A DNA stretch of 64,000 nucleotides from an uncultured Bacilli bacterium (GTDB lineage: Bacteria > Bacillota_I > Bacilli_A > RF39 > UBA660), in assembly GCA_934096555.1 (NCBI GenBank), contig CAKOMD010000002.1:3128-67127 (forward strand), given 5' to 3'. Shown here piece after piece: positions 1,920 through 63,007 of the stretch (positions are counted from its first letter, which is position 1; the number at the start of each line of letters is the position of its first letter). Both the position numbers and the translations under genes were made by a program. The notes under the pieces were generated by a model. That model saw only the letters and a program-made list of their open reading frames with translations. It did no database searches and had not been told where the DNA came from.

Positions 1920-2882
<963 letters not shown>

Positions 2883-2894
2883 GGAGAATAATTC

Positions 2895-2919
2895 AAACGG
2901 TCTACTAGGCCGTTTTCTT
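2895..2919 (+). terminator. putative terminator after the collagen-like gene
   Basis: AAACGGTC / GGCCGTTT stem (one G:T pair), loop TACTA, then TTCTTAT. Confidence 0.45.
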
Positions 2920-2968
2920 ATAGACAAATATATCTTGACATGATAAAATGATATCAGAGGTGATAATG

Positions 2969-3307
2969 ATGATCCATGAAATGAAATTAAATAATGAGCC
3001 ATTTACTTTAATAAAAGCAGGCACCAAAGTAATAGAAATGCGGTTAAACGATGAAAAGAGAAGAAAAATAAAAATAGGAGACAAAATAGAGTTTACAAGT
3101 AGAGATAGCGGCGAAAAAATTATGACTGAAGTAATAAATTTACATAACTATCAAAGCTTTGCAGAACTGTATAAACATTTCAACAAAAAAGTCTTGGGAT
3201 ATTCTGATAATGAAGCAGCAGATCCAGCTGACATGAATAAATACTATTCTAAAGAAGAACAAGATAAATATGGAGTATTAGGTATTGAAATAAAATTAGT
3301 CAAATAA
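2969..3307 (+). CDS. ASCH domain protein
   Basis: ~112 aa, MIHEMKLNNEPFTLIKAGTKVIEMRLNDEKRRKIKIGDKIEF..., the pattern typical of small ASCH/PUA-like proteins. The start was chosen at the ATG behind AGAGGTGA; the track ORF starts at 2948. Confidence 0.65.
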   Translation: MIHEMKLNNEPFTLIKAGTKVIEMRLNDEKRRKIKIGDKIEFTSRDSGEKIMTEVINLHNYQSFAELYKHFNKKVLGYSDNEAADPADMNKYYSKEEQDKYGVLGIEIKLVK

Positions 3308-3501
3308 TTTTCATAAATTTATATAGCTATAGTGAAGAATAAAAAGAAAAGATGCACTTTGTACAAAGAATATTACCGCTATGCCGACATCATTAGTGCC
3401 AAGATACTTTGATGCATTTGCTATATTCTTAAAAAAAGATTCAAAATATGTACCTTAATTTGCTGCTAGAATAAATAACATTACAAAATATCAATAATAC
3501 G

Positions 3502-3530
3502 AAAGCATAATTTAATATGCTTTTTTCTTT
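3502..3530 (+). terminator. orphan rho-independent terminator with no intact gene upstream
   Basis: AAAGCATA / TATGCTTT 8-bp stem, loop ATTTAA, then TTTTCTTT. Upstream, at ~3352-3460, an open stretch reads ...NITAMPTSLVPRYFDAFAIFLKKDSKYVP*, with no start or RBS. Confidence 0.45.
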
Positions 3531-3551
3531 GGTAATAATCTTACCAGAAAG

Positions 3552-3581
3552 TTGACATTATATTACCATATATATTATAAT
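3552..3581 (+). promoter_or_regulatory. strong consensus promoter with no intact downstream gene
   Basis: TTGACA (3552-3557), 18-nt spacer, TATAAT (3576-3581). It points into the decayed RhuM-like gene. Confidence 0.4.
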
Positions 3582-3685
3582 TAAGTCATGTGTAAGAAAA
3601 ATTATAAACATATTAAAAAAACAACTTATTTCCAAATAAAATTAGTTCAAAAAGAAAAGATAGGGAGCATTTAGTGAAAGAATGA

Positions 3686-4417
3686 ATTTTAAATTTTGAT
3701 GCAATAATATCAGTTGGATATAGAGTAAATTCATTAAGAGCGACACAATTTAGGAGATGGACGGAAAATATACTTAAAACATTTACAATTCAAGGATATG
3801 TATTAGATAAAGAAAGAATGAAAAATGGTTCATTTATTGATAAAGATTATTTTGAAAAGTTATTAGAAGGAGTCCGAGAAATTAGGTTATCTTAAAGAAG
3901 GCTTTATCAAAAAGTAACTGACATTTATGCTAAAAGTATAGATTATGATCCTAAATCTCCTATATCAATCAATTTCTTTAAAAGGATTCAAAATAAAATG
4001 CACTATGCTGTGTCAAAACAAACAGCAGTAGAAATTATATATAGTAGAGTCAATTCAGAAAAGAACATATGGGCTTGACTTCATAGAAAAATATTCCTTA
4101 TGGAATCAGTTGTAATAATTGCTAAAAATTATTTAAATAAAGAAGAATTAAAAGATTTAGAAGGAATTGTTAGTGTATTTTTAGAAATTGCTGAAAATAG
4201 GGCGAGAAGCCATATTCCAATGATGATGGAAGACAGGTCATCTAGAATAGATAAGCTTTTGCTTGCAGATGATAGGGATATATTAAAAGATGCTGGAAAA
4301 ATACCACATGAAATAGCTTACGATAAAGCATTAACTGAATTTGAAAAATATAGAATAAAACAGGATAAATTATATAAGTCAGATTTTGATTTATTAATAG
4401 AAGAAACAAACAAATAA
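3686..4417 (+). pseudogene. RhuM-family (virulence protein RhuM-like) pseudogene, N-terminally truncated with two in-frame stops
   Basis: A single frame reads ILNFDAIISVGYRVNSLRATQFRRWTENILKTFTIQGYVLDKERM...S*RRLYQKVTDIYAKSIDYD...IYSRVNSEKNIWA*L...AKNYLNKEELKDLEGIVSVFLEIAENRA...KYRIKQDKLYKSDFDLLIEE. It is collinear with the intact paralog at 38378..39403. In-frame stops are TAA at 3893-3895 and TGA at 4076-4078, and about 90 N-terminal residues are missing. Confidence 0.85.
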
Positions 4418-10469: not shown

Positions 10470-11738
10470 ATGAATATTGAATCACATAATATGGGAGCAT
10501 ATAACCTACATTTTATAAAAACAAACAAATTTAAAACAATATCAGTGGATGTTAACTTTTATCGTGAAATAAAAGAAGAAGAAATTACTAAAAGAAACTT
10601 ATTAAAAATGATATTACTAGATTCTAATAATGACTATAAAACCGAGAGAGAATTAATTATTGAAAGTGAAAGATTATATGATATTAAAATATCTTCAGGT
10701 ATATCTAGAATAGGAAAATTTAGTGATTTATCTTTTCAAACTAAGTTTCTAAATGAAAAATATACAGAAGAGGATATGAATAAAGAGTCTATCATCTTTT
10801 TCTTAAGCTTAATATTTAATCCTTATGTAAAAGATGGTAGGTTTGTTAACATAGACAAGCAAAAGAGTAGATTATATCAAGAAATAAATAGTCTCAAAGA
10901 TAATAAAATTAAGTATTCTATGTTAAAGTTAATGGAAAAAATGAAAGATAAACCATATTCATATAATCCATATGGTAATAAAGAAGATTTAGATGATATA
11001 AGTGGTAAGGAATTATATGAATATTACAAAAAAGTTATAAATGAAGATCAAATAGATATCTTTGTACTAGGAGATTTTTCTCCTAGTGAAATGAAAGAAA
11101 TATTTAAGGAATATTTTAAAGTAAATACATTTAAAAAAGAAAATAAAGATCTTATTATTCCAGAACTAGTACCTAGAAAAAGAATAGTAAAATATCATGA
11201 GTATGATAAAGTTAGTCAGTCTCAGTTAGTACTACTATGCAGTTTAAATAATTTAACTGACTTTGAAAGAAAATATACTATAAAACTATATAGTGAAATA
11301 CTTGGAGGCTCCTCAAGCTCAGTACTTTTTAGTAGAGTTCGTGAAGAAAAAGGCTATTGCTACTACATAAACTCGGGAGTAAAAGCCTATGATAATATTC
11401 TTCTTATAAATTCTGGGGTAGAAAAAAAGAACATAGAACCTGCGATTAAATTAATTAGAAAATGTCTTAAAGATATAAATAATGGCAAGATATCTGATAA
11501 ATTACTTGAGTCGTCAAGAAATACTATTTTATCCTCAATAAAGTCTTCGTCAGATACACCATCAGGAATAATAAATACAGCATTATCTAGAGTACTTGTA
11601 TCATCAGATGATATTGAAGAGAGAATAAATAATTTTAGTAAAATTACTAAAGAAGACATTATTAAGGTAAGTAAAAAAGTTAGTCTTCATACAATTCTTA
11701 CTCTAGAAGATAAGGAGGAAGAACATGGAGAAGATTAG
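10470..11738 (+). CDS. M16 (pitrilysin/insulinase) family protein, non-catalytic partner
   Basis: 422 aa with M16 architecture but no HxxEH motif. It overlaps the downstream M16 gene by 14 nt. Confidence 0.75.
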   Translation: MNIESHNMGAYNLHFIKTNKFKTISVDVNFYREIKEEEITKRNLLKMILLDSNNDYKTERELIIESERLYDIKISSGISRIGKFSDLSFQTKFLNEKYTEEDMNKESIIFFLSLIFNPYVKDGRFVNIDKQKSRLYQEINSLKDNKIKYSMLKLMEKMKDKPYSYNPYGNKEDLDDISGKELYEYYKKVINEDQIDIFVLGDFSPSEMKEIFKEYFKVNTFKKENKDLIIPELVPRKRIVKYHEYDKVSQSQLVLLCSLNNLTDFERKYTIKLYSEILGGSSSSVLFSRVREEKGYCYYINSGVKAYDNILLINSGVEKKNIEPAIKLIRKCLKDINNGKISDKLLESSRNTILSSIKSSSDTPSGIINTALSRVLVSSDDIEERINNFSKITKEDIIKVSKKVSLHTILTLEDKEEEHGED

Positions 11739-12996
11739 AATCAAGGGAGTAGAAGAAGATATCTTTTATGAAAAATTAGATAATGGATTAGAAGTGTACT
11801 TATACACCAAAGATACGGTTCATTCAAATTATGTGACATTTACTACTAAATATGGATCTGTATATAATGAATTTGTTCCTATTGGTACTAGTAAAATGAC
11901 TACTTTTCCAAAAGGAATCGCTCATTTCTTAGAACATAAAGTATTTGCAGAAAAAGAAGATCCACAACCTATGGAATTCTTTGCTAGAAGTGGAGCAGTT
12001 TGCAATGCTTATACAACATTTAAAAATACAACCTATCTATTTTATGCTACCGAATCATTAAAAGAAAATATAGATTATCTATTAAATTATGTTCAGAATA
12101 TCTATTTAACAGATGAATCAGTCGAGAATGAAAAAAATATAATATCAGAAGAAATTCATATGTATGACGATAGACCAATGAGTATTCTTGAAGAAAAAAT
12201 AAGAAAGAATACCTTAAAGACCAATCCATATAAAGATAGTATTATTGGTACTACTGAAGATATAAGAAGTATAACCAAAGAAGATTTAGAAACCTGCTAT
12301 CATACTTTTTATCACCCTTCCAATATGTTTATGGTTATTACTGGTAATTTTGATCCAGAAGAAATAATGAATGTTATTAAAGAAAATCAAAATAAGAAAG
12401 AGTTCTCTAAAGAGGACAGTATAAAAATTAAAGAATTTACTGAAGAAGATAAAGTTGTAAAAGAAAAAGAAATAGTGAAAGTAGAAACTAATATACCTAA
12501 AATAGCTTATACTATCAAATTACCTGTAAAAGATATTAGACTTACCAGAAGAAAATTACACTTATATTTATATATATTATTTACTATTCTTTTTGATGAG
12601 ACATCAGAGTTTGACGAAAAACTAAAGAAAGATGGTATTATAAATAACACTACTTATGTTAATCTAATTAATTGTGATACTCATATTTTAATATCTTTAA
12701 TGAATGAAACAGATAAGTATGAAGAATATATAAATAAAATAAAAGATAAACTAGATAATATTGAAATAAGTGAAGAAGACTTTAATAGAAAGAAAAAAGT
12801 TCTTATAAGTAATGAAGTATTTGCCTACGAAAATACAGAGGCAGTAGGAGATATTATTATTGATAACATAATCTATAATAAACATTTAGAGGATAATCCT
12901 ATTGAAATAATTGATAGTTTAAATATGAAAGAATTTTTAGATTTAATTAAGAAAATAGACATAGATAATACTTCTTTAGTTATCTTAAAAAAATAA
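11725..12996 (+). CDS. M16 family zinc peptidase (catalytic subunit)
   Basis: GIAHFLEHKVF contains the inverted zinc motif HxxEH. 423 aa, paired with the upstream M16 paralog. Confidence 0.85.
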   Translation: MEKIRIKGVEEDIFYEKLDNGLEVYLYTKDTVHSNYVTFTTKYGSVYNEFVPIGTSKMTTFPKGIAHFLEHKVFAEKEDPQPMEFFARSGAVCNAYTTFKNTTYLFYATESLKENIDYLLNYVQNIYLTDESVENEKNIISEEIHMYDDRPMSILEEKIRKNTLKTNPYKDSIIGTTEDIRSITKEDLETCYHTFYHPSNMFMVITGNFDPEEIMNVIKENQNKKEFSKEDSIKIKEFTEEDKVVKEKEIVKVETNIPKIAYTIKLPVKDIRLTRRKLHLYLYILFTILFDETSEFDEKLKKDGIINNTTYVNLINCDTHILISLMNETDKYEEYINKIKDKLDNIEISEEDFNRKKKVLISNEVFAYENTEAVGDIIIDNIIYNKHLEDNPIEIIDSLNMKEFLDLIKKIDIDNTSLVILKK

Positions 12997-13083: not shown

Positions 13084-14235
13084 ATGAAGAAAATATTATC
13101 AAAATTAGATAAACCATTATTAATAGTAACAACTATCTTTTTTATTTTTGGTCTTATAATGATCCTTAGTGCTTCTTCAATGGAATCATATATGCGTTAT
13201 AATTATAGTCCATATCATTACTTTTTTAGACAGGCTATCTTTTTAGGAATAGGATTAATTGCCTTTCTCTTTGTAATTATCTTTCCTACTAAGAATTATA
13301 AGAAGCTAGATAAAGTACTACTAGGGGCAATTATATTGGCCTTAGTAGGTTTAATATTTTATGGTCATGTGGCTAATCAAGCTGTTAGCTGGTATAAAAT
13401 AGGACCTTTTGCCATTCAGCCATCTGAGTTTGCTAAAATAATAATAATAATCTATCTAGCAGTTTATTACTCTAAAAATAAAGACAAACTAGACAATCAG
13501 TGGAATATAATAAAACCAATGATATTTATAGTCATAATAGCAGTATTGGTAGCATTACAACCAGATATGGGAACTGCTACTATAATAGGATTAATAGCCC
13601 TTGCTATGTTCTATGCTGCCCCTATGGAGAAAAAGAGTAGGAGTATCTTTAACAAAATAATTATTGGTGGAATTCTCTTAGTAATATTAGTACTAGTAGT
13701 AGCAGGGGGTAAGTTTCTTCAGTCATATCAGTTAGATCGTTTTAATTATTTTAATCCGTGTGATAGGTATCAAGAAAAGACAGGTTATCAGTTATGTAAT
13801 AGCTTTATAGCTTTTAAAAATGGTAGTATAAAAGGCCAAGGCCTTGGTAATTCTACTCAAAAATATTTATATTTACCAGAATCATATACCGACTTTATCT
13901 TTCCTATCATTGTAGAAGAATGGGGGTTAATCGTTGGTATTCTTATAATCTTAGTATATATGTTTGTTCTATTTAGAATAATTCAAATAGCCAGAAGAGC
14001 TAGTAATTTAAAGAATAGTCTTATTTGTTATGGCGTATTTATTTATTTTCTTCTTCACATAATGGTAAATTTACTCGGAGTAACAGGAGTAATACCATTA
14101 ACAGGAGTACCACTTCCATTCTTATCCTATGGAGGCTCATATACAATATGTCTTATGATTGCTTTAGGATTAGTCCAAAGAGTATCAATAGAAACTAATA
14201 TACAAAAACAAAAAGAATTAAAAAAATTATCATAA
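13084..14235 (+). CDS. SEDS family peptidoglycan polymerase (FtsW/RodA/SpoVE)
   Basis: 383 aa, ~10 TM helices, with QPSEFAK, PDMGTA and LPFLSYGGS motifs. It lies directly upstream of ftsA-ftsZ. Confidence 0.9.
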   Translation: MKKILSKLDKPLLIVTTIFFIFGLIMILSASSMESYMRYNYSPYHYFFRQAIFLGIGLIAFLFVIIFPTKNYKKLDKVLLGAIILALVGLIFYGHVANQAVSWYKIGPFAIQPSEFAKIIIIIYLAVYYSKNKDKLDNQWNIIKPMIFIVIIAVLVALQPDMGTATIIGLIALAMFYAAPMEKKSRSIFNKIIIGGILLVILVLVVAGGKFLQSYQLDRFNYFNPCDRYQEKTGYQLCNSFIAFKNGSIKGQGLGNSTQKYLYLPESYTDFIFPIIVEEWGLIVGILIILVYMFVLFRIIQIARRASNLKNSLICYGVFIYFLLHIMVNLLGVTGVIPLTGVPLPFLSYGGSYTICLMIALGLVQRVSIETNIQKQKELKKLS

Positions 14236-14283
14236 CATAGACCTTAGGCTATGTTATGCCTCTTAAGACTTCGGCTTAAGAGG
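14231..14283 (+). repeat. paired-hairpin intergenic element, locus 2 (inverse orientation)
   Basis: CATAACATAG-ACCTTAGG-CTATGTTATG (14231-14258) is directly followed by CCTCTTAAG-ACTTCGG-CTTAAGAGG (14259-14283). The first hairpin overlaps the SEDS stop codon. Confidence 0.8.
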
Positions 14284-14380
14284 AAATAATAAAAAAATAA
14301 ACAAAAAGAAAAGAAAATATATACAATTCTTTCTTTTTTTGTTATAATTAAATTGTATCATTTTAGGGAGAGTCGATATC

Positions 14381-15628
14381 ATGAAAAAAATATATACTTC
14401 AATAGATATTGGATCCGATACAATTAAGTTTGTCGTGGGTGAATACTTCAAAGAAAAAGTAAACATACTATATGCACACGAAGAAAAAGCAAAAGGAATA
14501 AGAAAAGGTTTAATTGTCGATCCTAACTTAGCTATTAATGCTATCAAAGATGGTATTAAAGTAGTTAATAATTATTTAGGTATTAATATAAAAAAAGTAG
14601 TAGTAGGTGTTCCTGACTATAATGCTAAATTTATGTTTGTAACAGGTAGTACAAATATTACAGATGAAGAAGAAATAATTACTACCGAAGATATAAATAA
14701 AGTAATAAAAGAGTCAGTATATTCTAAAATAGCTCAGGATTACGAACTAATAACAGTACTACCATTGGTTTTCTTAATAGATGGAAAACCAGAAACAAAA
14801 CCATGTGGTAAGACAGGAAAAGTTCTAGAAGTTAAAGGAATAATGATTACTGCTCCTAAAAAGAATATCTATTCTGTGCTATCTGTTATGGAAGGTGCAG
14901 GACTAGAGGTTGCCGATATTACTATATCAGGTATTGGAGACTACTACGAAGTAAGAAATAGTGATTTAAATAAAAAAGTTGGAGCTATTATAAATATAGG
15001 TCATGAAACCACTAATGTATCAGTATATAATAAAGGTTGTATTATGAATACTGAAACTATTCAATTAGGTGGCACTAATATTGATAAAGACTTAGCTTAT
15101 ATGTTTAATATAAATATCTTTGATGCTAGGGTAATTAAAGAAAAGTTTGCTTCTAGTCATAAAAGATTTATAGCTCTAAATGATGTATATATGGTAAAAA
15201 ACACTGCTGGTGAAGAAATAAAATTAAATCAAATTGAAGTTACTGAAATAGTAATGGATAGAATAGTAGAAATATTAAATCTAGCACGTAAGCAAATATT
15301 ACTATTGACAAAACAAGACATTTCTTATATAGTAATAACAGGAGGATTAACTGAAATAAGGGCATTTAAAAATTTAGTATATGAAATTTTTGGAAAAGAT
15401 GTTATAATATATTCAGAAGATACCCTCGGAGTAAGAAATAATAAATATACTACAGCAGTAGGTATGATAAAATATTTTGCCGATAAGATGGAAACTAGGG
15501 GGAAAGAGTACTCAATGGTAGATAGAGAGGACGAAGAACTACTTATCAATCCAAATAATAAGAATAAAAAGGACAGAACGAAGATTACCAAAATATTTGG
15601 AAGTTTTATTGGTACTAAGGAGGATTAA
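14381..15628 (+). CDS. ftsA: cell division protein FtsA
   Basis: [14 protein letters not shown] start, actin-fold phosphate motifs ([21 protein letters not shown]), and position upstream of ftsZ. Confidence 0.9.
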
Positions 15629-15630
15629 AA

Positions 15631-16707
15631 ATGAATAATATGTTTGGTTTAGAAATGGATCAGTTAGCAAAAATAAAAGTAATTGGAGTAGGTGGAGGCG
15701 GTTGTAACGCTGTCAATAGAATGATAGAGTCTGGCTTAAAAGGCGTTGAATTCATTGTAGCAAATACTGATCTTCAAGTATTAAATAATTCTTTAGCTCC
15801 AATAAAGTTACAAATAGGTAGAGAATTAACTGATGGGCTAGGAGCTGGTGCTAATCCTGAAATAGGTCGAGAAGCTGCTCTTGAGTCTAAAGCAGAAATA
15901 GAAGAAGCAATTAAAGGTGCTGATATGGTCTTCATAACTTGCGGTATGGGAGGTGGAACTGGTACTGGTGCTGCCCCTGTTATTGCAGAAATATCACAAG
16001 ATTTAGGAGCATTAACCGTAGGTATAGTTACTAAACCATTTAGTTTTGAAGGTAAAAAGAGAATGAGTCAAGCTGTATCAGGACTTGATGAATTAAAGAA
16101 ACACGTTGATACCTTAATCGTAATACCCAACGATAGATTAAGAGAATTAATTGATAAATCTACTCCAATGCTTGAAGCATTTAGAGAAGTAGATAATGTA
16201 CTACATAGAGGTGTACAATCAATATCAGACTTAATCGCTGTATCAGGACTAGTTAACCTAGACTTTGCTGATGTAAAGGCTGTTATGAAAGATAGAGGTA
16301 ATGCTCTAATAGGTATAGGTGTAGGATCAGGTGAAAATAGAGCTGTAGAGGCCGCTAAACAAGCTGTATCATCACCATTATTAGAAACATCAATAAATGG
16401 TGCTACAGATGCTATAATCAATGTTACAGGAGGCGCTTCACTTACTTTATTTGAAGTAGAAGAAGCTGCTGAAGTAATTAGAACTGCCGCTAATACAGAT
16501 ATTAATACTATCTTTGGAGCAGTAATAAATGAAAACTTAAATGATGAAGTAATAGTTACTGTTATAGCAACAGGATTTGAAAACCAAAGTGAACCACTAT
16601 ATCATAGTTTTGATTCCACTAGAAGAGAAGATCTTTATAGAGAAGCAACTGGTGATATGGATAATGATTTAGATATTCCACCATTTTTAAGAGATAGAGA
16701 CTTCTAA
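15631..16707 (+). CDS. ftsZ: cell division protein FtsZ
   Basis: [28 protein letters not shown] and the tubulin signature [11 protein letters not shown] are present. The C-terminal peptide is DIPPFLR. Confidence 0.97.
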
Positions 16708-16816
16708 TTAGAGTCTCTTTTATTATAATTATAATTAGTTTGTCAAATTTATGTAAACAGTATTGTAATTATTTATTTAGTAGTGTATTCTAGTAATAGA
16801 GAGGGAGAGTGATAGT

Positions 16817-17017
16817 GTGATTTATCCATCTATTGATAAAATCTTGAATATAGTAGATTCTAAGTATGCTCTTGTATATATTGTATCTGATAGGGCAAAA
16901 CAAATGACAAGAACAGGCTATTATCAAATGCCTATCAAAGAATATAAGAGTTCTAAAAATATAGGTAGAGCTCTAGAAGAAGTATATAATGGATTAATTC
17001 ACATAGAGAAACGTTAA
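16817..17017 (+). CDS. rpoZ: DNA-directed RNA polymerase subunit omega (probable)
   Basis: 66 aa with PSIDKILNIVDSKYALVYIVSDRAKQM, which resembles the Gram-positive omega N-terminus. GTG start behind GGGAGAG. Confidence 0.65.
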   Translation: MIYPSIDKILNIVDSKYALVYIVSDRAKQMTRTGYYQMPIKEYKSSKNIGRALEEVYNGLIHIEKR

Positions 17018-17036
17018 AAAATGTTTCTCTTTTTCT
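17005..17036 (+). terminator. rho-independent terminator after rpoZ
   Basis: AGAGAAAC / GTTTCTCT stem spanning the stop codon, followed by TTTTTC. Confidence 0.6.
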
Positions 17037-17081
17037 TGATAAAATTAACGTATTAATGTATACTTAAATTAAGGTGATATT

Positions 17082-18107
17082 ATGTATTTTTTACTAGATG
17101 CTTGCAAACATCCAACAATACTTAGAGTATTATATTTTGCATATTTATTTTGGGAAATACTCGCAGTAGTTATACCAATAGGATTAATTATAATGTTAAT
17201 GATAGACTTCACTAAAGCAGTAGTTATTAGTAAAGAAGACGCACAAGTTAAAAGTATGAAACTTGTTGGCAAGAGAATAATGTATGCTGTTCTTATCTTT
17301 GCTACTCCATGGTTAGTTAGTCTAATAATGACTATCCTTGATGGTGCAGGAGTAGAATTGGGCGGAGACTATATGCAGTGTATTAATACCGTGAAAAATA
17401 TAGCAAATGGTACTGATAATATTGAAAAATATGATAGGCTTCTTGAAGAAGAGGAAGAATTAGAAAAAAAGAAATTAGAAGAACAACGTAGGGCAAATGA
17501 TGAGTCCAGAAAAGAATTAGCAGATGAAACCAAATATGTAAATGCCGCTACACAAATGTTAAACATAGCGAAAGGTGAAATAGGCCATAAAGGTGGTAAC
17601 AAATATAGTGGTTATGGTGATTCCACTCCATGGTGTGCCTTCTTTGCAGTATGGTTAACTGAACAAACCAAAATAGATGGTGAAGGAACAGTTCGTAATA
17701 TTATAGAAAAAGAAGGACCAATATATAGTACAGGAGCTGCTGGCGGTACAATGATTAATTTCAATACCGCAAGTAATCTAGAATTCCATTATTCAAAATA
17801 TTATGGTGGAAATTATACTCCTAAAAAAGGTGACTTTATTTATTATAGATTTGATAATCATAATTGGGATAAGAAAATATATGGAAGTATGTTTGATCAA
17901 ACCGATCATGTAGGTATTGTTGATTACGTAGAAGGTAATAAATTACATACAGTAGAAGGCAATATGTCTAATGGAAATGGTGGTGGAAGTGCCAATAACG
18001 TAGTAGCTCCAGTAGATTATTATACACTAGATAGTTCAGATATAATGGGTTATGGTTCTTGGTATAAGACATCAGGTGGCTACAGTGGCAGTGGCGGTAA
18101 ATTCTAA
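17082..18107 (+). CDS. membrane-anchored CHAP-domain (NlpC/P60-like) peptidoglycan hydrolase, cassette A
   Basis: Two N-terminal TM helices, an acidic coiled linker (LLEEEEELEKKKLEEQRR), then a CHAP-like domain. The domain has TPWCAFFAVW (Cys), GDFIYY and DHVGIVDY...HTVEGN (His). Confidence 0.8.
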   Translation: MYFLLDACKHPTILRVLYFAYLFWEILAVVIPIGLIIMLMIDFTKAVVISKEDAQVKSMKLVGKRIMYAVLIFATPWLVSLIMTILDGAGVELGGDYMQCINTVKNIANGTDNIEKYDRLLEEEEELEKKKLEEQRRANDESRKELADETKYVNAATQMLNIAKGEIGHKGGNKYSGYGDSTPWCAFFAVWLTEQTKIDGEGTVRNIIEKEGPIYSTGAAGGTMINFNTASNLEFHYSKYYGGNYTPKKGDFIYYRFDNHNWDKKIYGSMFDQTDHVGIVDYVEGNKLHTVEGNMSNGNGGGSANNVVAPVDYYTLDSSDIMGYGSWYKTSGGYSGSGGKF

Positions 18108-18121
18108 AATAGGAGGCTCTT

Positions 18122-18787
18122 ATGAAAAATAAATTATACTTTATTATACCATTACTACTATTACTTAGTGGTTGTACAGTTAACTATAATCTTGATATCA
18201 ATAAGGATAAAATAACCGAAAATATTAGCGGTACTGTAACTAATGAAGAAATAACTCCAGAAGTAGAAGGAAAAAGCGATGTTAACCCCAAATATTATTA
18301 CCTATACTTGGATGATTCATCATTAATTACAGATAGTAATGAAAAATATACCAAAGATATTACAGATACTAATAATGGTAAGAAGTTCAACTTCAATTAT
18401 ACATATGAAGGTAACTATAATAAATCAAAAGTAATTAATACCTGCTTTGAAAATCATACCATAAATGAAACTGACGACTACTATTATATTAAATTAAGTG
18501 GTAAATTTGCTTGTCTATACTCTGATAAAATTAATATTAATGTAACCAGTAGCTATGAAGTACTAGATAATAACGCTCAAAAAGTAGATGGTAATAAATA
18601 TACTTGGGTAATAGATAATCCAGACAATGTAGACATTACCTTAACAGTATCAAAGACAGTAGAATATAAAACTCCCACTAGAGCAAAAACATTTAGTACA
18701 TTTCAGTTAATAGGCCTTATAATATTTGCATTATTGACTATAATAACATATTTTTTATACAAAAAGAAAAATAGCGGCGAAATATAA
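18122..18787 (+). CDS. lipoprotein with additional C-terminal TM anchor, cassette A partner
   Basis: Lipobox LLLLSGC, and a C-terminal hydrophobic helix FSTFQLIGLIIFALLTIITYFLYKKKNSGEI. Strong RBS (AGGAGG) 14 nt after the upstream stop. Confidence 0.75.
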   Translation: MKNKLYFIIPLLLLLSGCTVNYNLDINKDKITENISGTVTNEEITPEVEGKSDVNPKYYYLYLDDSSLITDSNEKYTKDITDTNNGKKFNFNYTYEGNYNKSKVINTCFENHTINETDDYYYIKLSGKFACLYSDKININVTSSYEVLDNNAQKVDGNKYTWVIDNPDNVDITLTVSKTVEYKTPTRAKTFSTFQLIGLIIFALLTIITYFLYKKKNSGEI

Positions 18788-18919
18788 CCGCTTTTATCTT
18801 ATGGCAAGATTTTAACTATTAAATAGTATAAAGTCAAGTCTAGATTTTTAGTGATATTTGTTATCCATTTTACTTGAAAAAAAACAAATAATAAGTTATA
18901 CTTAAAGCAAGGTGATAGT

Positions 18920-19933
18920 ATGTATTTTTTACTAGATGCTTGTCAGCATCCAACAATACTTAGAGTATTATATTTTGCATATTTATTTTGGGAAATACTC
19001 GCAGTAGTTATACCAATAGGATTAATTATAATGCTAATGGTAGATTTTACTAAAGCTGTAGTTATCAGTAAAGAAAACGAACAAGTTAAAAGTATGAAAC
19101 TTGTCAGTAAGAGAATAATGTACGCTGTTCTTATTTTTGCTACACCATGGTTAGTTAGTCTAGTAATGACTACACTTGATGGCGTTGGCGTAGAATTAGG
19201 CGGCGACTATATGCAGTGTATTACCACAGTTAAAAATATAGCAAATGGTACTGAAAATATTGAAAAGTATGATAAACTTCTTGAAGAAGAGGAAGAAGAA
19301 GAAAGATTAAAATATGCTGCTTCACGTTCATTCAATAATCAGACCGATTTAATAAAAGCTAATTACAGTGCTAATTATGACAATTTACAGCAGTGTACTG
19401 ATTCAAGATGGAGTAGTTATCCGGTTTGCTTAAAATCAAAGACTATATGTTCTTCAGGATGTGGTTATATGGCTTATACTATGGTAGTTAGACACTTTGG
19501 ATATACTAATATAACCCCGCCAAATATTGTTGATATTGCTTGCAATGAATATGGATATACTGGAAGTGCTGCCTCAATACAATTTTTAACTAGTGGTATT
19601 TTAAACAATCGTTATGGAATAAAAGTAAGGGTAATAGCTAATAGTTATGATGCTAGTCCACCAAGCAAAATAAACGAAAACAAAAAATATCTAAGTACAA
19701 TGAAGAAAGGACTACGTGAAGGAAAGGCATACATTATCCTACAACCAGGACACTATCTATCAATACTCGGTATAAATAATGACGATACAATAATTGTTGG
19801 AGATTCAGGCAGGGGCTATGGTAGTACAAATAAATATACACTAGAAAGCTTTTATGAAGCTACTAAAAACAGCCCAAATAATGATTGTGAAACTTCTTGC
19901 GGTTGGACTTTTATAGGTGAGTATAGTAAATAG
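18920..19933 (+). CDS. membrane-anchored papain/C39-like cysteine peptidase-domain protein, cassette B
   Basis: The first ~125 aa are nearly identical to the 17082 protein. The C-terminal domain is unrelated: CSSGCGYMAYTMVV (Cys) ... QPGHYLSILG (His) ... VGDSG. It resembles the C39-like domain of the 31867 protein. Confidence 0.75.
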   Translation: MYFLLDACQHPTILRVLYFAYLFWEILAVVIPIGLIIMLMVDFTKAVVISKENEQVKSMKLVSKRIMYAVLIFATPWLVSLVMTTLDGVGVELGGDYMQCITTVKNIANGTENIEKYDKLLEEEEEEERLKYAASRSFNNQTDLIKANYSANYDNLQQCTDSRWSSYPVCLKSKTICSSGCGYMAYTMVVRHFGYTNITPPNIVDIACNEYGYTGSAASIQFLTSGILNNRYGIKVRVIANSYDASPPSKINENKKYLSTMKKGLREGKAYIILQPGHYLSILGINNDDTIIVGDSGRGYGSTNKYTLESFYEATKNSPNNDCETSCGWTFIGEYSK

Positions 19934-19943
19934 AGGAGATACA

Positions 19944-20612
19944 ATGAAAAGGAAAATAATTATTCTTGCAACAACTTTAATATTACTAACAGGATGTTCC
20001 GCTACTTATGATTTATATTTAGATAAAAATAATATTACTGAAAGAACATACATATATGATAGTACTAAGAAGCTTGAAGGCTTAGAATATTACGATATGA
20101 ATAAAGGAAATGAAGTGAGCATTGACTTATATGCCAATGAAGTAGCAGCCTTTGAAAATAACTTTAAATATGAAAAAGAAGAAATAAAAACTAATAATGG
20201 TAATAATTTTGGATATAGGTATAATACTTCATATAAGTATAATGAATTCAATAAATTATCGGTAGTAGCGGCCTGCTACGACAAAATAGAAATAAAAAAT
20301 GATGATAATATTTCTGTTAAAACATCAAATGAATTTAAATGCTTTGATAAATATTCTCTATTAGAAGATGTGACTATTCGAATTCATTACACAGGAAAAG
20401 TATTAAATACCAATGCTGATAAAGTAGAAAATGATATTTATATATGGAAAATAACTAAAGATAATTATAAAAATAGCAGTATTATCTTTACTGCTGAAAA
20501 AGTAAAAACAAAGATATTTAGTACATTTCAAATAGTAGGATTAATAATACTAACAATATTAATAGTAATAACATATTTATTATATAAAAGAAAAAATAGT
20601 GGTAAAATATAA
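19944..20612 (+). CDS. lipoprotein with additional C-terminal TM anchor, cassette B partner
   Basis: Lipobox ILLTGC and C-terminal FSTFQIVGLIILTILIVITYLLYKRKNSGKI. It is a diverged paralog of 18122..18787. The start is placed at ATG 19944, behind GAGGAG. Confidence 0.75.
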   Translation: MKRKIIILATTLILLTGCSATYDLYLDKNNITERTYIYDSTKKLEGLEYYDMNKGNEVSIDLYANEVAAFENNFKYEKEEIKTNNGNNFGYRYNTSYKYNEFNKLSVVAACYDKIEIKNDDNISVKTSNEFKCFDKYSLLEDVTIRIHYTGKVLNTNADKVENDIYIWKITKDNYKNSSIIFTAEKVKTKIFSTFQIVGLIILTILIVITYLLYKRKNSGKI

Positions 20613-20684
20613 CTGCTATTTTTGTTCTTCTTTCTTTCTTCTAGCATATACTTTAATGTAGAAGAAAGGAATGATAAAATAAAC

Positions 20685-20945: not shown

Positions 20946-21043
20946 GGCTTCTTTTACTTTATAAAGTAAAATAAATATTAATTTTATTATTGATTAAATC
21001 TGCTATTTATTATATAATTATATTGAAAATAGGTGAGACAATT

Positions 21044-22204
21044 ATGAAATATAAAGATTTAATAAAGAATAATTTGAAGTTTATTATAGCCATGTCTGTT
21101 GTAATAGCCTTTGGTATCATTGGAATAACATTTGCTATAAGTATAGATACCTTTAATCCTATAGGTATAAATGTTAGTACAGCCACACTAGGAGCCAACA
21201 TAACTTATCTTAATGGTAGTAGTGCTGCAATTACTAATACAGGTAACCTCTTGCCAATTAATGATGTAAAAACAGAAATAACGCCAAGTACTACTGATAG
21301 CAGGGTATTAAAGATAGATTTTAAATTATCAGGAGTTTCAACTAATCCTGATAATACAATAATGGATATATCACTTAATAGTGTCGATATAAGCTGTCCT
21401 TTAAGAAACGAATATTTTAAATGGAAACTATATAAAGATGGAACCTTAATAAGTACTGGTAATTTTTCACCAAAATTTGATATTATTGAAAATAATAGAA
21501 TAGTGTTAACAAGTACCCAGGAAAGCTTAGCAATTACAGGTAATACATATTCATTAATATTTTATATTGCCGAAAGTTGTACTGGTGATTTAAGTACTTG
21601 TAATGCCAATAACGAACAATATAATCAGTCTGGTATATTAGCTAAACATTTTTCGGCTATAATGAAAGTCGAACTATCAACTGGTAGTAAGAAAACAAAT
21701 ACTAGGAAAACAAGTAATAATTATTCTTGCTATGTGGAACAAATAGCGGTTCCAACCTGTAATAGCAATTTGACATATAATGGTGGTGCTCAGGAGTTAA
21801 TTACTGATGAAAATGGTAATATTAGATTTACAAACAATTCAGGAACTGATGCTGGTAGTTATACAGTTATAGTTCGTCCAAAATCAAGTTCAATGTCTTG
21901 GAAAGATGGTACAATTGATAGTAAGCCAATAATTTGTACGATTGCCAAAAAAGAAGTAACAATCACACCTAGCGCTCAGACTATAACGCAAGATGGTAAT
22001 GTTGTAAGTGATCCGACTAAATTAACTGTTACAGGTCTAGTTTCAGGTCATTCTATAAGTCACATACACTTATATACCGATCGTTATGCAACTGGTACAG
22101 GAACTATTTATGCTAGTGCAGCCCAAGTAGTAGATTCAAGTGGTAATGATGTTACCGACAATTATAGTTTTACTTATAATACAGGTACAGTTACAATTAA
22201 ATAA
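21044..22204 (+). CDS. N-terminally anchored surface protein with C-terminal MBG-like repeats
   Basis: TM anchor followed by a Ser/Thr-rich beta domain similar in style to 7269..8801. The C-terminus carries TYNGGAQEL...GTDAGSYTVIV and ...SGNDVTDNYSFTYNTGTVTIK, the pattern typical of MBG/YDG-type adhesin repeats. The start is placed at ATG 21044. Confidence 0.6.
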   Translation: MKYKDLIKNNLKFIIAMSVVIAFGIIGITFAISIDTFNPIGINVSTATLGANITYLNGSSAAITNTGNLLPINDVKTEITPSTTDSRVLKIDFKLSGVSTNPDNTIMDISLNSVDISCPLRNEYFKWKLYKDGTLISTGNFSPKFDIIENNRIVLTSTQESLAITGNTYSLIFYIAESCTGDLSTCNANNEQYNQSGILAKHFSAIMKVELSTGSKKTNTRKTSNNYSCYVEQIAVPTCNSNLTYNGGAQELITDENGNIRFTNNSGTDAGSYTVIVRPKSSSMSWKDGTIDSKPIICTIAKKEVTITPSAQTITQDGNVVSDPTKLTVTGLVSGHSISHIHLYTDRYATGTGTIYASAAQVVDSSGNDVTDNYSFTYNTGTVTIK

Positions 22205-30085: not shown

Positions 30086-31087
30086 ATGAAAAAAATAAAA
30101 TTAGGTGTAATATATGGCGGTTTATCCACGGAACATGAAGTATCTATTAATTCTGCGAAAAGTGTAATAGATAATTTAGATAAAGATAAATACGATATAT
30201 ATAAAATATATATTGATAAAAAAGGTGAATGGTATAAAGAAGATAATAAAATAGATAATGTCTTTGATTACTTAAGAAGCTTAGATGTTGTCTTTCCAGT
30301 TTTACATGGTCTATATGGTGAAGACGGTACTATTCAGGGATTATTTGAGTTACTTGGAGTACCTTATGTAGGCTGCGGAGTACTATCTAGTTCTTTAGGT
30401 ATGGATAAAGTATATGCAAAAATGATATTTGATAAAGTAGGAATAGAAAATGCTAAATACATTTATATCAAAAAAGTAGAGGATAAATATATCTATATAG
30501 ATGATAAGTTTAATGAAAAAGAATTATCACTTCAAGATATTGCATTAATTGTCGAATCTGAATTATCTCTACCAGTCTTTATAAAACCATCAAGAAGTGG
30601 TTCTTCAGTTGGAATAAATAAGGCTCATACTAGAGAAGAAGTAATTAAATACATAGAATATGCTTCAGGTTTTGATAATAAAATATTAATTGAAGAAAAT
30701 ATTGTTGGTAGAGAAATAGAATGTGCTGTATTAGGAAATAATGAGGTAGAAGCTTCACCACTTGGTGAGATATTACCTAAAGGTGAATTTTATAGTTATA
30801 ATGCCAAATATGTAGACGACTCTAAAACAATAATACCAGATGATATAGATAAAAACATTAGCGATAAAATAAGAAAAACTGCAATTAAAGCCTATAAGTC
30901 TCTTGATTGCTCTGGACTATCTAGAGTGGATTTCTTCTTAGAAAAAGATACCAACAGAATAATATTAAATGAAATAAATACTATGCCAGGATTTACTACG
31001 ATAAGTATGTATCCTAAGTTATGGGAAAGTACAGGATTATCTTATAGTGAGTTATTAGATAAACTAATTAGTCTTGCTTTAGAATAG
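30086..31087 (+). CDS. ddl: D-alanine--D-alanine ligase
   Basis: GVIYGGLSTEHEVS, FPVLHG.YGEDGTIQG, KP...GSSVGI and EINTMPGFT are present. 333 aa. Confidence 0.95.
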   Translation: MKKIKLGVIYGGLSTEHEVSINSAKSVIDNLDKDKYDIYKIYIDKKGEWYKEDNKIDNVFDYLRSLDVVFPVLHGLYGEDGTIQGLFELLGVPYVGCGVLSSSLGMDKVYAKMIFDKVGIENAKYIYIKKVEDKYIYIDDKFNEKELSLQDIALIVESELSLPVFIKPSRSGSSVGINKAHTREEVIKYIEYASGFDNKILIEENIVGREIECAVLGNNEVEASPLGEILPKGEFYSYNAKYVDDSKTIIPDDIDKNISDKIRKTAIKAYKSLDCSGLSRVDFFLEKDTNRIILNEINTMPGFTTISMYPKLWESTGLSYSELLDKLISLALE

Positions 31088-31093
31088 GTAATT

Positions 31094-31744
31094 ATGAAAA
31101 AGATAAAAGTAATAATAATGATAGTAACACTAGTACTAGTAATAGGACTTATATATTTATTATATATACTTAATATAATACCACATAGAAAGTATAGTAA
31201 TAGTGATTTTAATATTAATACTTATATTAGTAGTATAGATAAAGATAATGATGGTATAGATGATCAAACAGATATCTTAAATAGCGTTAGAGAATATATA
31301 AAGACAAAACCAAAATACAAAAGTAAATATTATAGTACAGGTTATCCTAATGATGAATATGGAGTATGTTCTGATGTAGTAGCCTTTGGATTAAAAGGAG
31401 CAGGTTATGATCTAAGAGAACTAGTAAATAATGATATTATAAATAATAAAGATAGTTATGATATTAAAACTATAGATAAAAATATAGACTTCAGAAGAGT
31501 AAGAAACTTAAAAGTATATTTTGAAAGAAATAGTATTAAATTAACTACTGATATTAATGATATTTCTTCTTGGCAAGGAGGAGATATAATTATATTTAAA
31601 AAACATATTGGTATTGTATCAGATAAAAGAAATAGTAAAGGAATACCATTTATTATCCATCATGCTAATCCATATCAATTACATTATGAAGAAGATATAT
31701 TAGAAAATAGAAATGATATTATAGGTCATTATAGAGTAAGTTAA
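31094..31744 (+). CDS. DUF1287-like (NlpC/P60-related) membrane-anchored protein
   Basis: N-terminal TM helix. GVCSDVVAFGLKGAGYDL, NIDFRRVRNL, GGDIIIF..HIGIV and IIHHA follow the pattern of the DUF1287 family. Confidence 0.65.
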   Translation: MKKIKVIIMIVTLVLVIGLIYLLYILNIIPHRKYSNSDFNINTYISSIDKDNDGIDDQTDILNSVREYIKTKPKYKSKYYSTGYPNDEYGVCSDVVAFGLKGAGYDLRELVNNDIINNKDSYDIKTIDKNIDFRRVRNLKVYFERNSIKLTTDINDISSWQGGDIIIFKKHIGIVSDKRNSKGIPFIIHHANPYQLHYEEDILENRNDIIGHYRVS

Positions 31745-31866: not shown

Positions 31867-32694
31867 ATGAAAAAAGAAACAAAGAAAAAAACTAAAAGAA
31901 AGATATTAATATTTGTTATTATTTTAGTATCCATTATTTTTATAAGAACTGAATATTATAATTATAAATTTAATCACCAATATAAGAGCGCAGAAGAGAC
32001 TATAAATAATAAAAATATAGATAGTATTAATTATTTAGAGACTTTAGCAAATGAAAATCCAGATATTGCAAAGATTATGAAAAATAAAGATAGTTATCCT
32101 AAAATATTATTAGAAATGCTTTCTAGAAATCTTGATATGACTGACTATGTATTAAATTATTTAGATTATAAAGGACAAGTATTTTCTAATGATATAGGTA
32201 AAGTTACCAAAGGTAAATATCCATTACTACTTCAATATGATACTAGATGGGGATATGGAATGTATGGTGACGATGTTATTGCAATAAATGGCTGTGGACC
32301 AACATCTCTTGCTATGATAATCGCAGGTCTTACTGGTAGAAATGATATTACTCCTTATGATATTGCAACATACTCATATCAAAAAGGTTATTATACTGGT
32401 GGTACAAGCTGGAGTCTTTTTACTGAAGGAACCAGTAAATATGGAATTATAGGAACAGAAATACCATTATCAAAGGCTTCAATAATAAATGAATTAGAAC
32501 AAAACCATCCCATTATTTGTAGTATGAAAAAAGGAGACTTTACAACGACAGGACATATAATTACAATTGTAGGAACAAAGAATAAACAATTTATCATAAA
32601 TGATCCTAATAGTAGGGAAAGAAGCAATGAACTATGGAGTTATGAAACATTAGAACCTCAAATAAGAAATTTATGGTCGTTTAGACTAAAGTAA
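31867..32694 (+). CDS. membrane-anchored C39-like (papain-fold) peptidase domain protein
   Basis: N-terminal TM helix. YDTRWGY, INGCGPTSLAMIIAG (Cys), TTGHIITIVG (His) and INDPNS are present. Confidence 0.7.
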   Translation: MKKETKKKTKRKILIFVIILVSIIFIRTEYYNYKFNHQYKSAEETINNKNIDSINYLETLANENPDIAKIMKNKDSYPKILLEMLSRNLDMTDYVLNYLDYKGQVFSNDIGKVTKGKYPLLLQYDTRWGYGMYGDDVIAINGCGPTSLAMIIAGLTGRNDITPYDIATYSYQKGYYTGGTSWSLFTEGTSKYGIIGTEIPLSKASIINELEQNHPIICSMKKGDFTTTGHIITIVGTKNKQFIINDPNSRERSNELWSYETLEPQIRNLWSFRLK

Positions 32695-61751: not shown

Positions 61752-61760
61752 TAAAAATAC

Positions 61761-61788
61761 TTGAAAAATAATAATAATATGATAAAAT
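61761..61788 (+). promoter_or_regulatory. internal promoter upstream of tuf
   Basis: TTGAAA (61761-66), 16-nt spacer ending TGA, TAAAAT (61783-88). Confidence 0.4.
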
Positions 61789-61822
61789 AGAATATGTAAA
61801 TTAAGAAAGAGAGGAAATTATT

Positions 61823-63007
61823 ATGGCAAAAGCTAAATTTGATCGTTCAAAACCACACGTTAACATTGGTACTATCGGCCACGTTGACCATGGTAAAACA
61901 ACATTAACAGCTGCTATTACAAAAGTATTATCAGCTAAAGGCGGAGCAGAATTCATGGATTATGCAAACATTGATAAAGCTCCAGAAGAAAGAGAAAGAG
62001 GTATTACAATCAACACTGCACACGTTGAATACCAAACTGAAAAGAGACACTATGCTCACGTTGACTGTCCAGGACACGCAGACTATGTTAAAAACATGAT
62101 TACTGGTGCTGCTCAAATGGATGGAGCAATCCTAGTTATTGCTGCAACTGATGGTCCTATGGCTCAAACAAGAGAGCACATCTTACTTGCTAGACAAGTT
62201 GGTGTACCTAGAATGGTTGTATTCTTAAATAAATGTGATATGGTTGATGATGAAGAATTATTAGACCTAGTTGAAATGGAAGTAAGAGAATTACTTACTG
62301 AATACGGATTTGATGGAGACAATACTCCAATCATTAGAGGTTCTGCTCTTAAAGCTCTTGAAGGAGATCCTAAGTATGTTAAGGCTATCGAAGACTTAAT
62401 GGATGCTGTTGATGAATGGATTCCAACTCCTGAAAGAGATAATGACAAACCATTCTTAATGTCAATTGAAGACGTATTTACTATTACTGGTAGAGGAACA
62501 GTTGTTACTGGTAGAGTTGAAAGAGGACAATTAAAACTTAATGATGAAGTTGAAATCGTTGGTTTAAAAGATACTAAGAAAACAGTTGTTACTGGTATTG
62601 AAATGTTTAGAAAACAACTTGACTATGCTGAAGCTGGAGATAATGCTGGTGTATTATTAAGAGGAATCGACAGAAGTGAAGTTGAAAGAGGACAAGTTCT
62701 TGCTAAACCTGGATCAGTTCATCCACATAAGAAATTTAAAGCACAAGTTTATGTACTTTCTAAAGAAGAAGGTGGAAGACATACTCCATTCTTTACAAAC
62801 TATAGACCTCAATTCTATTTCAGAACTACTGATGTTACTGGTGTAGTTACATTACCAGAAGGAACTGAAATGGTTATGCCTGGTGACAATGTTACTATGA
62901 CAGTTGAATTAATTGCTCCAATCGCAGTTGAAAACGGAACTAAGTTCTCAATTCGTGAAGGTGGACACACTGTTGGTGCTGGTTCAGTAACTAACATTAT
63001 TGAATAA
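61823..63007 (+). CDS. tuf: elongation factor Tu
   Basis: [27 protein letters not shown] and NKCD are present. 394 aa. Confidence 0.98.

Follow-up and report, generated by a model that had tools for sequence, protein, structure and literature searches.

A 64-kb window of chromosomal DNA from an uncultured Bacilli bacterium (contig CAKOMD010000002.1; "the window" means this whole stretch, whose GC content is low, at ~28%) carries two genes for predicted envelope hydrolases, hydA and hydB, each followed by a gene for a lipoprotein, lipA and lipB. The locus consists of two paralogous two-gene modules (hydrolase plus lipoprotein), a tandem pattern for which chance is ruled out, and a clade of uncultured, small-genome gut Bacilli has inherited the hyd-lip pair vertically as a core feature. 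We favor, with moderate confidence, the interpretation that HydA and HydB are membrane-tethered autolysins of the producing cell, built on a pilin-type hairpin, and that each has a co-expressed LppM-like lipoprotein that partners the hairpin module. A preliminary description of this DNA had proposed either a polymorphic effector-immunity locus or a pair of regulated autolysins with dedicated inhibitors; autolysins, with the lipoproteins as dedicated partners, fit the data better.

In such an arrangement, a two-helix hairpin with both ends outside the membrane (N-out/C-out) would tether a wall hydrolase in the producer's own membrane, and an acidic helical stalk would let the catalytic head reach into the wall. 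In HydA this head would be a CHAP amidase/endopeptidase, in HydB a C39-like cysteine peptidase of papain fold, and the two enzymes, which probably have complementary specificities, may remodel the cell's own peptidoglycan in growth or division. The LppM-like lipoprotein would be doubly anchored in that membrane, through a lipid at its N terminus and a transmembrane (TM) helix at its C terminus, and could act close to the membrane as a partner of the hairpin module, serving to position, scaffold or regulate the enzyme. The topology, the action on the cell's own wall and the interaction of Hyd with Lip are what we infer from the findings below.

Conserved synteny and purifying selection at the hyd-lip locus

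The cassettes occupy the slot between rpoZ and spoVS, near ftsA and ftsZ: upstream lie ftsW-ftsA-ftsZ-rpoZ (13084-17017; rpoZ identified by Pfam as PF01192), and downstream lie spoVS, a gene for a 404-aa surface protein, queA and nrdD. Among public sequences, the nearest relatives are metagenome-assembled genomes (MAGs) of uncultured gut 'Bacilli/Tenericutes' such as UMGS1185 and Clostridium sp. CAG:302, which GTDB places in the order RF39. The order rpoZ, hairpin-hydrolase, Lip, spoVS was kept, wholly or partly, in about 17 genomes (L006-L018, L021, L001 and L037), most of which have one cassette with a CHAP head and a LipA-type partner. Among relatives, the identity of the CHAP heads to HydA runs from 93% down to 30%, a graded series of ordinary orthologous divergence. 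Two-cassette versions were found in three lineages (the window and L006; L007; and L037), and separate lineages show the CHAP/C39-like pair side by side. The C39-like/LipB-type cassette of one MAG was unlinked from the first cassette (L019 vs L014). The tandem arrangement is not a strain-specific duplication, an outcome that the preliminary description had kept in view.

The partner lipoprotein was found to follow the hairpin and not the head. In L037, Hyd1 carries a CHAP plus a beta-lactamase-like head and Hyd2 a C39-like head, and both partners are of the LipA type; in L015, a C39-like head with a LipA-type partner occupies the rpoZ-spoVS slot; and in L025, an ELLD head is accompanied by a Lip-family partner without a lipobox. 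Because LipA-type proteins follow both CHAP and C39-like heads, and a Lip-family protein follows ELLD, the Lip partner goes with the hairpin. The lipoprotein would thus be a partner of the module and not a head-specific immunity protein. In the more distant spore-former L036, the Lip partner was absent.

Ratios of nonsynonymous to synonymous substitution rates (dN/dS) were 0.06-0.16 overall, and 0.07-0.16 between the window and L007, for the modules, the heads and both lipoproteins. All four hyd/lip genes are under purifying selection, although with a dN roughly tenfold higher than in ftsZ or queA. A head replacement in L001 (GCA_009741515.1, VOFJ01000477.1), where the CHAP part is only 33% identical, was considered and dropped, as the assembly is frameshifted and the CHAP heads of the other genomes form a graded orthologous series. 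The flanks of the L001 locus show 86-89% nucleotide identity, and its genes are broken into many short open reading frames, giving the assembly an error-rich appearance and making the reading of its single cassette unreliable.

One hairpin module with many catalytic heads

Past the linker, HydA and HydB carry unrelated heads, one CHAP and the other papain-fold and C39-like, as had been noticed at the outset, and BLASTP found no significant similarity between them beyond aa 142. The HydA head matched CHAP (PF05257) with E = 2.6e-8 and 34.7 bits against a 26-bit cut-off and contains the motifs PWCAFF, DHVGIV and EGN; its C185, H276 and N294 were invariant in 35 homologues, consistent with membership of the CHAP family. 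The HydB head contains the motifs SGCGYMAY and GHYLSILG. Its own match to Peptidase_C39_2 (PF13529) is weak (E = 0.05, 14.6 bits, under the 24-bit cut-off), and 12 proteins of the N-module family reached PF13529, at up to 9.5e-19. N155, Q158 and C181 of HydB were invariant and H278 near-invariant (at least 90%) in 19 sequences. The AlphaFold2 (AF2) model of HydB had a predicted local distance difference test score (pLDDT) of 85, and its Foldseek matches, though weak, were all papain-fold: UfSP (E = 4.7e-3), the C39 domain of PCAT1, and SpeB. As modeled, HydB would have a Gln-Cys-His active-site arrangement on a papain-like fold.

A third C39_2 protein is encoded in the window at 31867-32694 (+), directly after ddl (30086-31087) and a DUF1287 gene (31094-31744). 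It is 275 aa long, with a single N-terminal TM anchor and a Peptidase_C39_2 match of 3e-18, and is 29% identical to the HydB head. Its position adjoining ddl and the DUF1287 gene supports a link of C39_2 to wall metabolism in this organism.

The preliminary description had suggested a survey for more head variants behind the same N-module, and these were found in abundance. The 119 full-length family members included CHAP (24), Peptidase_C39_2 (12), GDSL lipase (10), M23 (5), VanY (3) and glucosaminidase (2) heads, and further heads in the family were amidase_3, M15_4, C70, beta-lactamase-like, GH114, several alpha/beta hydrolases and ELLD. Across the family, at least 15 kinds of head are thus carried on the N-module, all of them envelope-acting enzymes. 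In L036, which has a GerA operon nearby, a 790-aa family member (L036:8001-10373) combines a signal peptide, an N-terminal ectodomain of ~250 aa, the hairpin, and GDSL and M23 heads. Its gene stands right after queA, and the next-but-one gene downstream (11230-12027) encodes a protein with a hydrophobic anchor that looks pilin- or camelysin-like by eye. A likeness of the ~250-aa N-terminal extension of P0052 and P0059 to SleB/CwlJ, likewise seen by eye, found no such match in Pfam and was dropped.

Relationship of the hairpin to VirB2-like pilins

The N-module, ~104 residues long (HydA aa 2-106), had at first gone unrecognized. An exhaustive phmmer search recovered 1,413 representative clusters at E <= 1e-3 and 207 at E <= 1e-10, so the module can be recognized after all; HydA and HydB themselves, though, fall below the Pfam model for the family, PF18895 ('T4SS_pilin'), which they did not match even at E <= 1. 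A word-indexed homology search with the N-module alone had returned just 9 close fragments, and the genome scan for the module used 12 closer sequences, the 60-sequence alignment having no conserved stretch of 7-10 columns. Within the module, C8, P32, R65 and F73 are invariant, and L14, F19, I33, D42, K45, K57, K64, P76 and C100 are near-invariant; of these, D42, K45, K57, K64 and R65 lie in the loop. AF2 predicted helices at 11-48 and 52-88 (pLDDT ~89), a short helix and a Glu-rich stalk at 114-140, and together with the conservation this gives two TM helices joined by a short basic loop, as in the pilins of type IV secretion systems (T4SSs). Some family members have a signal peptide and a ~250-aa domain ahead of the hairpin, and these relatives, together with the basic loop, suggest that the hairpin lies N-out/C-out.

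PF18895 was matched by 14 of 60 isolated modules (best 4.5e-7), and families from Mollicutes integrative and conjugative elements (ICEs) were matched by 10 (MMCAP2_0566), six (Mbov_0396) and five ('pilin-like' Mbov_0395) of the same 60. The module profile, for its part, retrieved stand-alone proteins of 100-190 aa, and found those of them annotated as PF18895 at E = 1e-17 to 1e-22. It is by transitive homology, then, that the N-module is placed in the VirB2-like T4SS pilin superfamily (PF18895/Mbov_0395-type); PF18895 is used as a marker for the VirB2-like pilins of Patescibacteria (PMC12102498). The concern raised in the preliminary description, that the module might belong to a known conjugation family, was in part borne out by this placement. 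PDB sequence searches gave no match for HydA or HydB, and matches to G-protein-coupled receptors (Pfam 7TM_GPCR; in the PDB, TM5-loop-TM6 for the module profile) were set aside as a compositional artefact.

Stand-alone modules adjoin a VirB11-like ATPase, an Mbov_0396-like protein and VirB4 in nine MAG loci (L027-L035). These clusters hold one stand-alone module and a second protein that ends in a module, and their polytopic protein and VirB4 matched Mbov_0396 (E = 1e-10) and the Mbov_0397 family (E = 1e-103), respectively. The cluster (e.g. L027:730-11981) is a conserved set of 11-13 genes in related Bacilli MAGs, some binned as Muribaculaceae, and encodes the VirB11-like ATPase, two proteins of ~300 and 260 aa, two pilin-like hairpin proteins, one with a variable N-terminal domain, the Mbov_0396-like polytopic protein and a Mycoplasma ICE-type VirB4; no relaxase was seen in the examined stretch. 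Outside complete T4SS clusters, stand-alone hairpin proteins were found at L002:10001-10405 and L004:10001-10300. One of these genes lies directly upstream of an ATP-synthase operon and the other between a mannosyltransferase gene and polA, with part of a VirB11-type cluster 5-9 kb upstream; L004 keeps part of a T4SS cluster.

The company of T4SS genes was thus a property of the stand-alone relatives in L027-L035 and not of the fused hydrolases. No T4SS core gene lay within 5-6 kb of ~20 fused-hydrolase loci, the 64-kb window held no homologue of the T4SS cluster beyond the two N-modules, and no secretion or mobile genes were found near the hyd-lip locus in the window or its flanks. Nor did the hyd loci sit in a conjugation or T4SS operon, the setting of the VirB1-like hydrolases. 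N-module relatives were likewise absent from 50,697 phage records, 72,556 plasmids and the IMG/VR contigs.

The partner lipoproteins

As the preliminary description had stated, each hydrolase gene is followed by a gene for a lipoprotein with a C-terminal TM helix (lipobox LLSGC or LLTGC, tail YKK(R)KNSG), and the two lipoproteins are more diverged than the N-modules, with 36% identity between LipA and LipB (E = 7e-23). The profile searches that it had proposed retrieved an unannotated family of 117 proteins of 206-254 aa, plus fragments, the named members of which are all 'hypothetical' proteins of Bacilli MAGs. A Pfam domain was present in 0 of the 117 homologues, and LipA and LipB had no significant match in Pfam or NCBIfam; a hit of LipA to a 'T6SS immunity lipoprotein' (type VI secretion system) in NCBIfam reached 15 bits against a cut-off of 43, covered the N-terminal ~100 residues including the signal peptide, and was discounted. 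Y22 and N151 are invariant across the family, and C108, C131 and W162 near-invariant. In the AF2 model of LipA (pLDDT 80), a beta-rich ectodomain precedes a TM helix at 193-217. Its best PDB match was LppM (2nc8; Foldseek E = 3.1e-7, probability 1.0), with moderate TM-scores of 0.43 (query-normalized) and 0.54 (target-normalized) that point to a likeness of fold and do not prove homology. LipA thus shares with LppM the fold and the layout of lipobox and C-terminal TM helix, and not the sequence family.

Gene conversion between the two cassettes

The preliminary description had counted 11 substitutions in the first 125 residues of HydA and HydB, and a recount gave the same figure; the two proteins are 91% identical over aa 1-120 and 84% over aa 1-142 (E = 9e-81). 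The near-identity of the DNA also extends upstream of the start codons, as had been reported, running through TATACTTAAA..AAGGTGATA.TATG. In 60-nt windows, the identity of A to B was 85-100% from ~17067 to ~17470 and at a background of ~40% through the heads. Since DNA identity reaches upstream and promoter-like elements sit equivalently before both genes, the repeat covers the -10 box and the ribosome-binding site (RBS).

Within genomes, the A and B modules were 91% (window), 95% (L006) and 97% (L007) identical, whereas the orthologous modules of the window and L007 were only 79-84% identical. Elsewhere the orthology between these two genomes is clear, with 85% identity in the HydB head, 81% in LipB, and 81-85% over the heads and lipoproteins overall. 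Because the paralogous modules are more alike than the orthologous ones, the modules have evolved in concert, through gene conversion that postdates the separation of the lineages. The second cassette is an old paralogue, now in tandem with the first, and recurrent within-genome conversion between the two 5' ends has kept the N-modules near-identical; their likeness reflects recombination at the homologous ends of two old paralogues and not a freshly shuffled delivery domain. The homogenization is lineage-specific, as the two N-modules of L037 are only 62% identical. At the other end of the cassettes, the 3' 105 nt of the lip genes in L007 were 91% identical between paralogues vs 81% and 87% between orthologues; in the window the paralogues were 77% identical, and the effect was absent. 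We had considered the C-terminal TM segment of Lip as a specially conserved docking helix, which family-wide conservation did not back; the high similarity of LipA and LipB there is better explained by occasional gene conversion.

Features and neighbors of the locus

The features of the locus are collected in Table 1. The terminator-like hairpin sets cassette A apart from ftsW-ftsA-ftsZ-rpoZ, and each cassette has its own putative promoter. The likely start of lipB is the ATG at 19944 (MKRK..., preceded by GAGGAG) and not the GTG at 19917.

Table 1. Coordinates of the hyd-lip cassettes and associated elements in the window
Feature	Position	Strand	Description
Intrinsic-terminator-like hairpin	17005..17030	+	Ends rpoZ; 11-bp stem, then T-run
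Putative promoter, cassette A	17036..17064	+	Sigma-70-like, TTGATA-17-TATACT; consensus match only; counterpart equally placed before cassette B
Gene-conversion tract, copy A	17058..17465	+	-10 box and RBS through hairpin codons to start of stalk; pairs with 18896-19303
hydA	17082..18107	+	341 aa; VirB2-like two-TM hairpin, acidic helical stalk, CHAP head
hydA, hairpin	17085-17399	+	aa 2-106
hydA, CHAP head	17613-17963	+	aa 178-294
lipA	18122..18787	+	221 aa; lipobox LLSGC (Cys18), beta-rich LppM-like ectodomain with conserved Cys108/Cys131, C-terminal TM helix (~aa 193-217), basic tail
lipA, 3' end (TM helix, tail)	18684..18795	+	Repeats at 20509-20620 with 78% nt identity; second homogenization-prone region
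Putative promoter, cassette B	18874..18902	+	Sigma-70-like, TTGAAA-17-TATACT; consensus match
Gene-conversion tract, copy B	18896..19303	+	Repeat and sliding identity
hydB	18920..19933	+	337 aa; hydA-type hairpin, Glu-rich stalk, papain-fold C39-like cysteine-peptidase head
hydB, hairpin	18923-19237	+	aa 2-106
hydB, C39-like head		+	~aa 150-337
lipB	19944..20612	+	222 aa; lipA paralogue, like architecture of lipobox and C-terminal TM helix

The 404-aa protein encoded after spoVS (20990-22204, +) has an N-terminal TM or signal anchor and weak MBG/antigen I/II-like matches in its C-terminal part. Its gene is syntenic after spoVS in relatives and fast-evolving (69% aa identity to L007, dN/dS 0.22). 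In L037, a gene for an IS605-family OrfB/TnpB (Cas12f-like) protein lies just after spoVS (L037:9738-10856). The local GC content of the window rises to 0.35-0.39 at 2001-4000 and 60001-62000 against a background of ~0.27.

Alternative interpretations

Several points weigh against the view that HydA and HydB are the cell's own autolysins. Papain-fold C39 domains usually cleave proteins or peptides and not necessarily peptidoglycan, and the heads found family-wide (lipases, amidases, M23 and muramidase-like enzymes) resemble antibacterial effector sets too. The link between Hyd and Lip is one at the level of the genes, and, as the TM helix of Lip is no more conserved than the ectodomain across the family, conservation lends no support to a specific TM-TM contact. 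It is also possible that the hairpin does more than anchor passively, its relatives being pilin-like parts of T4SS clusters, and the check for T4SS genes was confined to the 64-kb window and the flanks of the relatives' loci.

A polymorphic effector-immunity locus, in which the N-module would serve for delivery, the heads would be antibacterial toxins that can replace one another and each lipoprotein would confer the cognate immunity, seems to us very unlikely, although the anatomy on which the proposal was founded (conserved anchor, exchanged enzymatic heads, small gene downstream) is all real. One N-module does bear many heads, among them lipases and peptidoglycan hydrolases of the kinds that typify antibacterial effectors, a small envelope-located gene does stand after each hydrolase, and the head varies at the orthologous slot, being C39-like in L015 and CHAP elsewhere. 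However, the proposal fails on the core synteny of the locus, where heads are orthologous and diverge gradually, and on the low dN/dS of all its parts, without strain-level polymorphism; on the lack of co-variation, since homology of the lipoproteins does not depend on the head and LipA-type proteins accompany both CHAP and C39-like heads; and on delivery, as no secretion system, orphan cassettes or mobile elements lie nearby. Furthermore, the module is predicted to be an uncleaved integral-membrane hairpin that would keep the enzyme on the producer, and the lipoprotein has an LppM-like fold of a lipid-binding type, not a known hydrolase-inhibitor fold. A prophage or mobile lysis cassette, with a holin-like two-TM domain fused to an endolysin, would account for the match of the CHAP head to PHROG endolysin families, the ELLD ('endolysin-like domain') head in L025 and two-TM segments sized like class II holins. 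We rejected this reading as extremely improbable given the empty searches of phage, plasmid and IMG/VR sequences, the housekeeping synteny free of flanking phage genes, and a hairpin whose loop is basic and whose ends are both predicted to face outwards.

A connection to a T4SS or pilus is the alternative to which we give more weight, though it too is unlikely. Here, the hairpin would dock into, or be polymerized by, a T4SS-like apparatus of the Mollicutes-ICE type whose genes lie elsewhere on the genome; the head would then be a VirB1-like wall-opening enzyme, or would be displayed on a pilus and act on neighboring cells, with the lipoprotein as an assembly or self-protection factor. The homology of the module to the PF18895, Mbov_0395/0396 and MMCAP2_0566 families, the clustering of stand-alone or C-terminal modules with VirB11-like, VirB6-like and VirB4 genes in nine MAG loci, and an N-out/C-out topology that would expose a C-terminal fusion all speak for such a role. 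In Patescibacteria, moreover, divergent VirB2-like pilins commonly occur in arrays, one of which has been reported as essential (PMC12102498, PMC12857230). On the other side stand the lack of T4SS core genes around the fused hydrolases and in the window, the occurrence of stand-alone modules away from complete T4SS clusters (L002; L004 keeps part), and a fixed ftsAZ/rpoZ position with steady purifying selection that looks like housekeeping; a pilin bearing a 200-aa head might also fail to assemble. A more far-reaching form, slightly less credible still than the effector-immunity locus, holds that the hairpin works as a pilin, so that a chromosomal Mollicutes-ICE-type T4SS-like machine extracts the hairpin proteins and a pilus-like structure carries interchangeable heads, such as CHAP, C39, M23, amidase and GDSL, to neighbors, the lipoprotein holding the protein or protecting the producer. 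If true, monoderm bacteria would have a new, contact-dependent way to deliver polymorphic enzymes that attack the envelope, with a parallel in epibiotic Patescibacteria and their essential arrays of VirB2-like pilins.

Significance and comparison with known systems

Membrane-tethered autolysins and their regulators are central to Gram-positive growth and division. The parts of the hyd-lip locus are of known kinds, and their combination and conservation are undescribed: the literature searched contained no description of pilin-hairpin/hydrolase fusions or of the Lip family. These gut Bacilli, an abundant and uncultured clade, appear to mount a large share of their envelope enzymes on a single hairpin, which they have taken from conjugation pilins or have in common with them, and to pair a core hydrolase with an unannotated LppM-like lipoprotein. 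This gives a first functional context for a family comprising over 1,400 protein clusters, for an uncharacterized lipoprotein family, and for the LppM fold outside mycobacteria. The locus also offers a clean case of concerted evolution limited to the membrane-embedded ends of tandem cassettes, and a warning that a conserved N-module, a variable head and a small downstream gene are insufficient to call an effector-immunity system.

With polymorphic toxin loci, the hyd-lip cassettes share exactly these three traits, but they differ in having no delivery system, no head-immunity co-variation and no strain-level polymorphism. LppM of M. tuberculosis (Rv2171; 2nc8) resembles LipA in its signal peptide and lipobox, its beta-rich pseudo-barrel ectodomain of ~160 aa and its C-terminal TM helix, a layout described for LppM (PMC5217060). 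However, LppM is 11% identical to LipA, with no detectable sequence similarity and no common Pfam family; it is known for the binding of phosphatidylinositol mannoside (PIM) glycolipids (PMC6151718) and for macrophage effects, not for partnering hydrolases, and the Lip family, unlike LppM, has its own conserved Cys pair. The VirB2-like T4SS pilins (PF18895; Mbov_0395, MMCAP2_0566, Mbov_0396) share the ~100-aa two-TM hairpin with its basic loop and are homologous to members of the N-module family at the level of hidden Markov models, whereas in HydA and HydB the hairpin makes up the first third of an enzyme of 340 aa, has a conserved Cys8/Cys100 pair and stands outside any T4SS context in the window.

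In S. aureus SagB-SpdC and LytH-ActH, and in FtsEX-PcsB/CwlO, a membrane-protein partner controls a wall hydrolase that is kept at the membrane, and one of these hydrolases, PcsB, is a CHAP enzyme with a tie to division; neither the sequences nor the types of partner are related to those of Hyd and Lip, and the likeness is one of concept. Finally, the VirB1-like hydrolases of Gram-positive conjugation systems (PrgK of pCF10, TraG of pIP501, Orf14 of Tn916 and CwlT of ICEBs1) are, like HydA and HydB, membrane-anchored extracytoplasmic wall hydrolases, and are of the CHAP/NlpC-P60 type (PMC12857230). They have a single N-terminal TM helix or signal sequence, often combine SLT/muramidase with CHAP domains and lie within transfer operons, whereas HydA and HydB are built on a pilin-like hairpin, are encoded at a core chromosomal site and come with a lipoprotein partner of their own.

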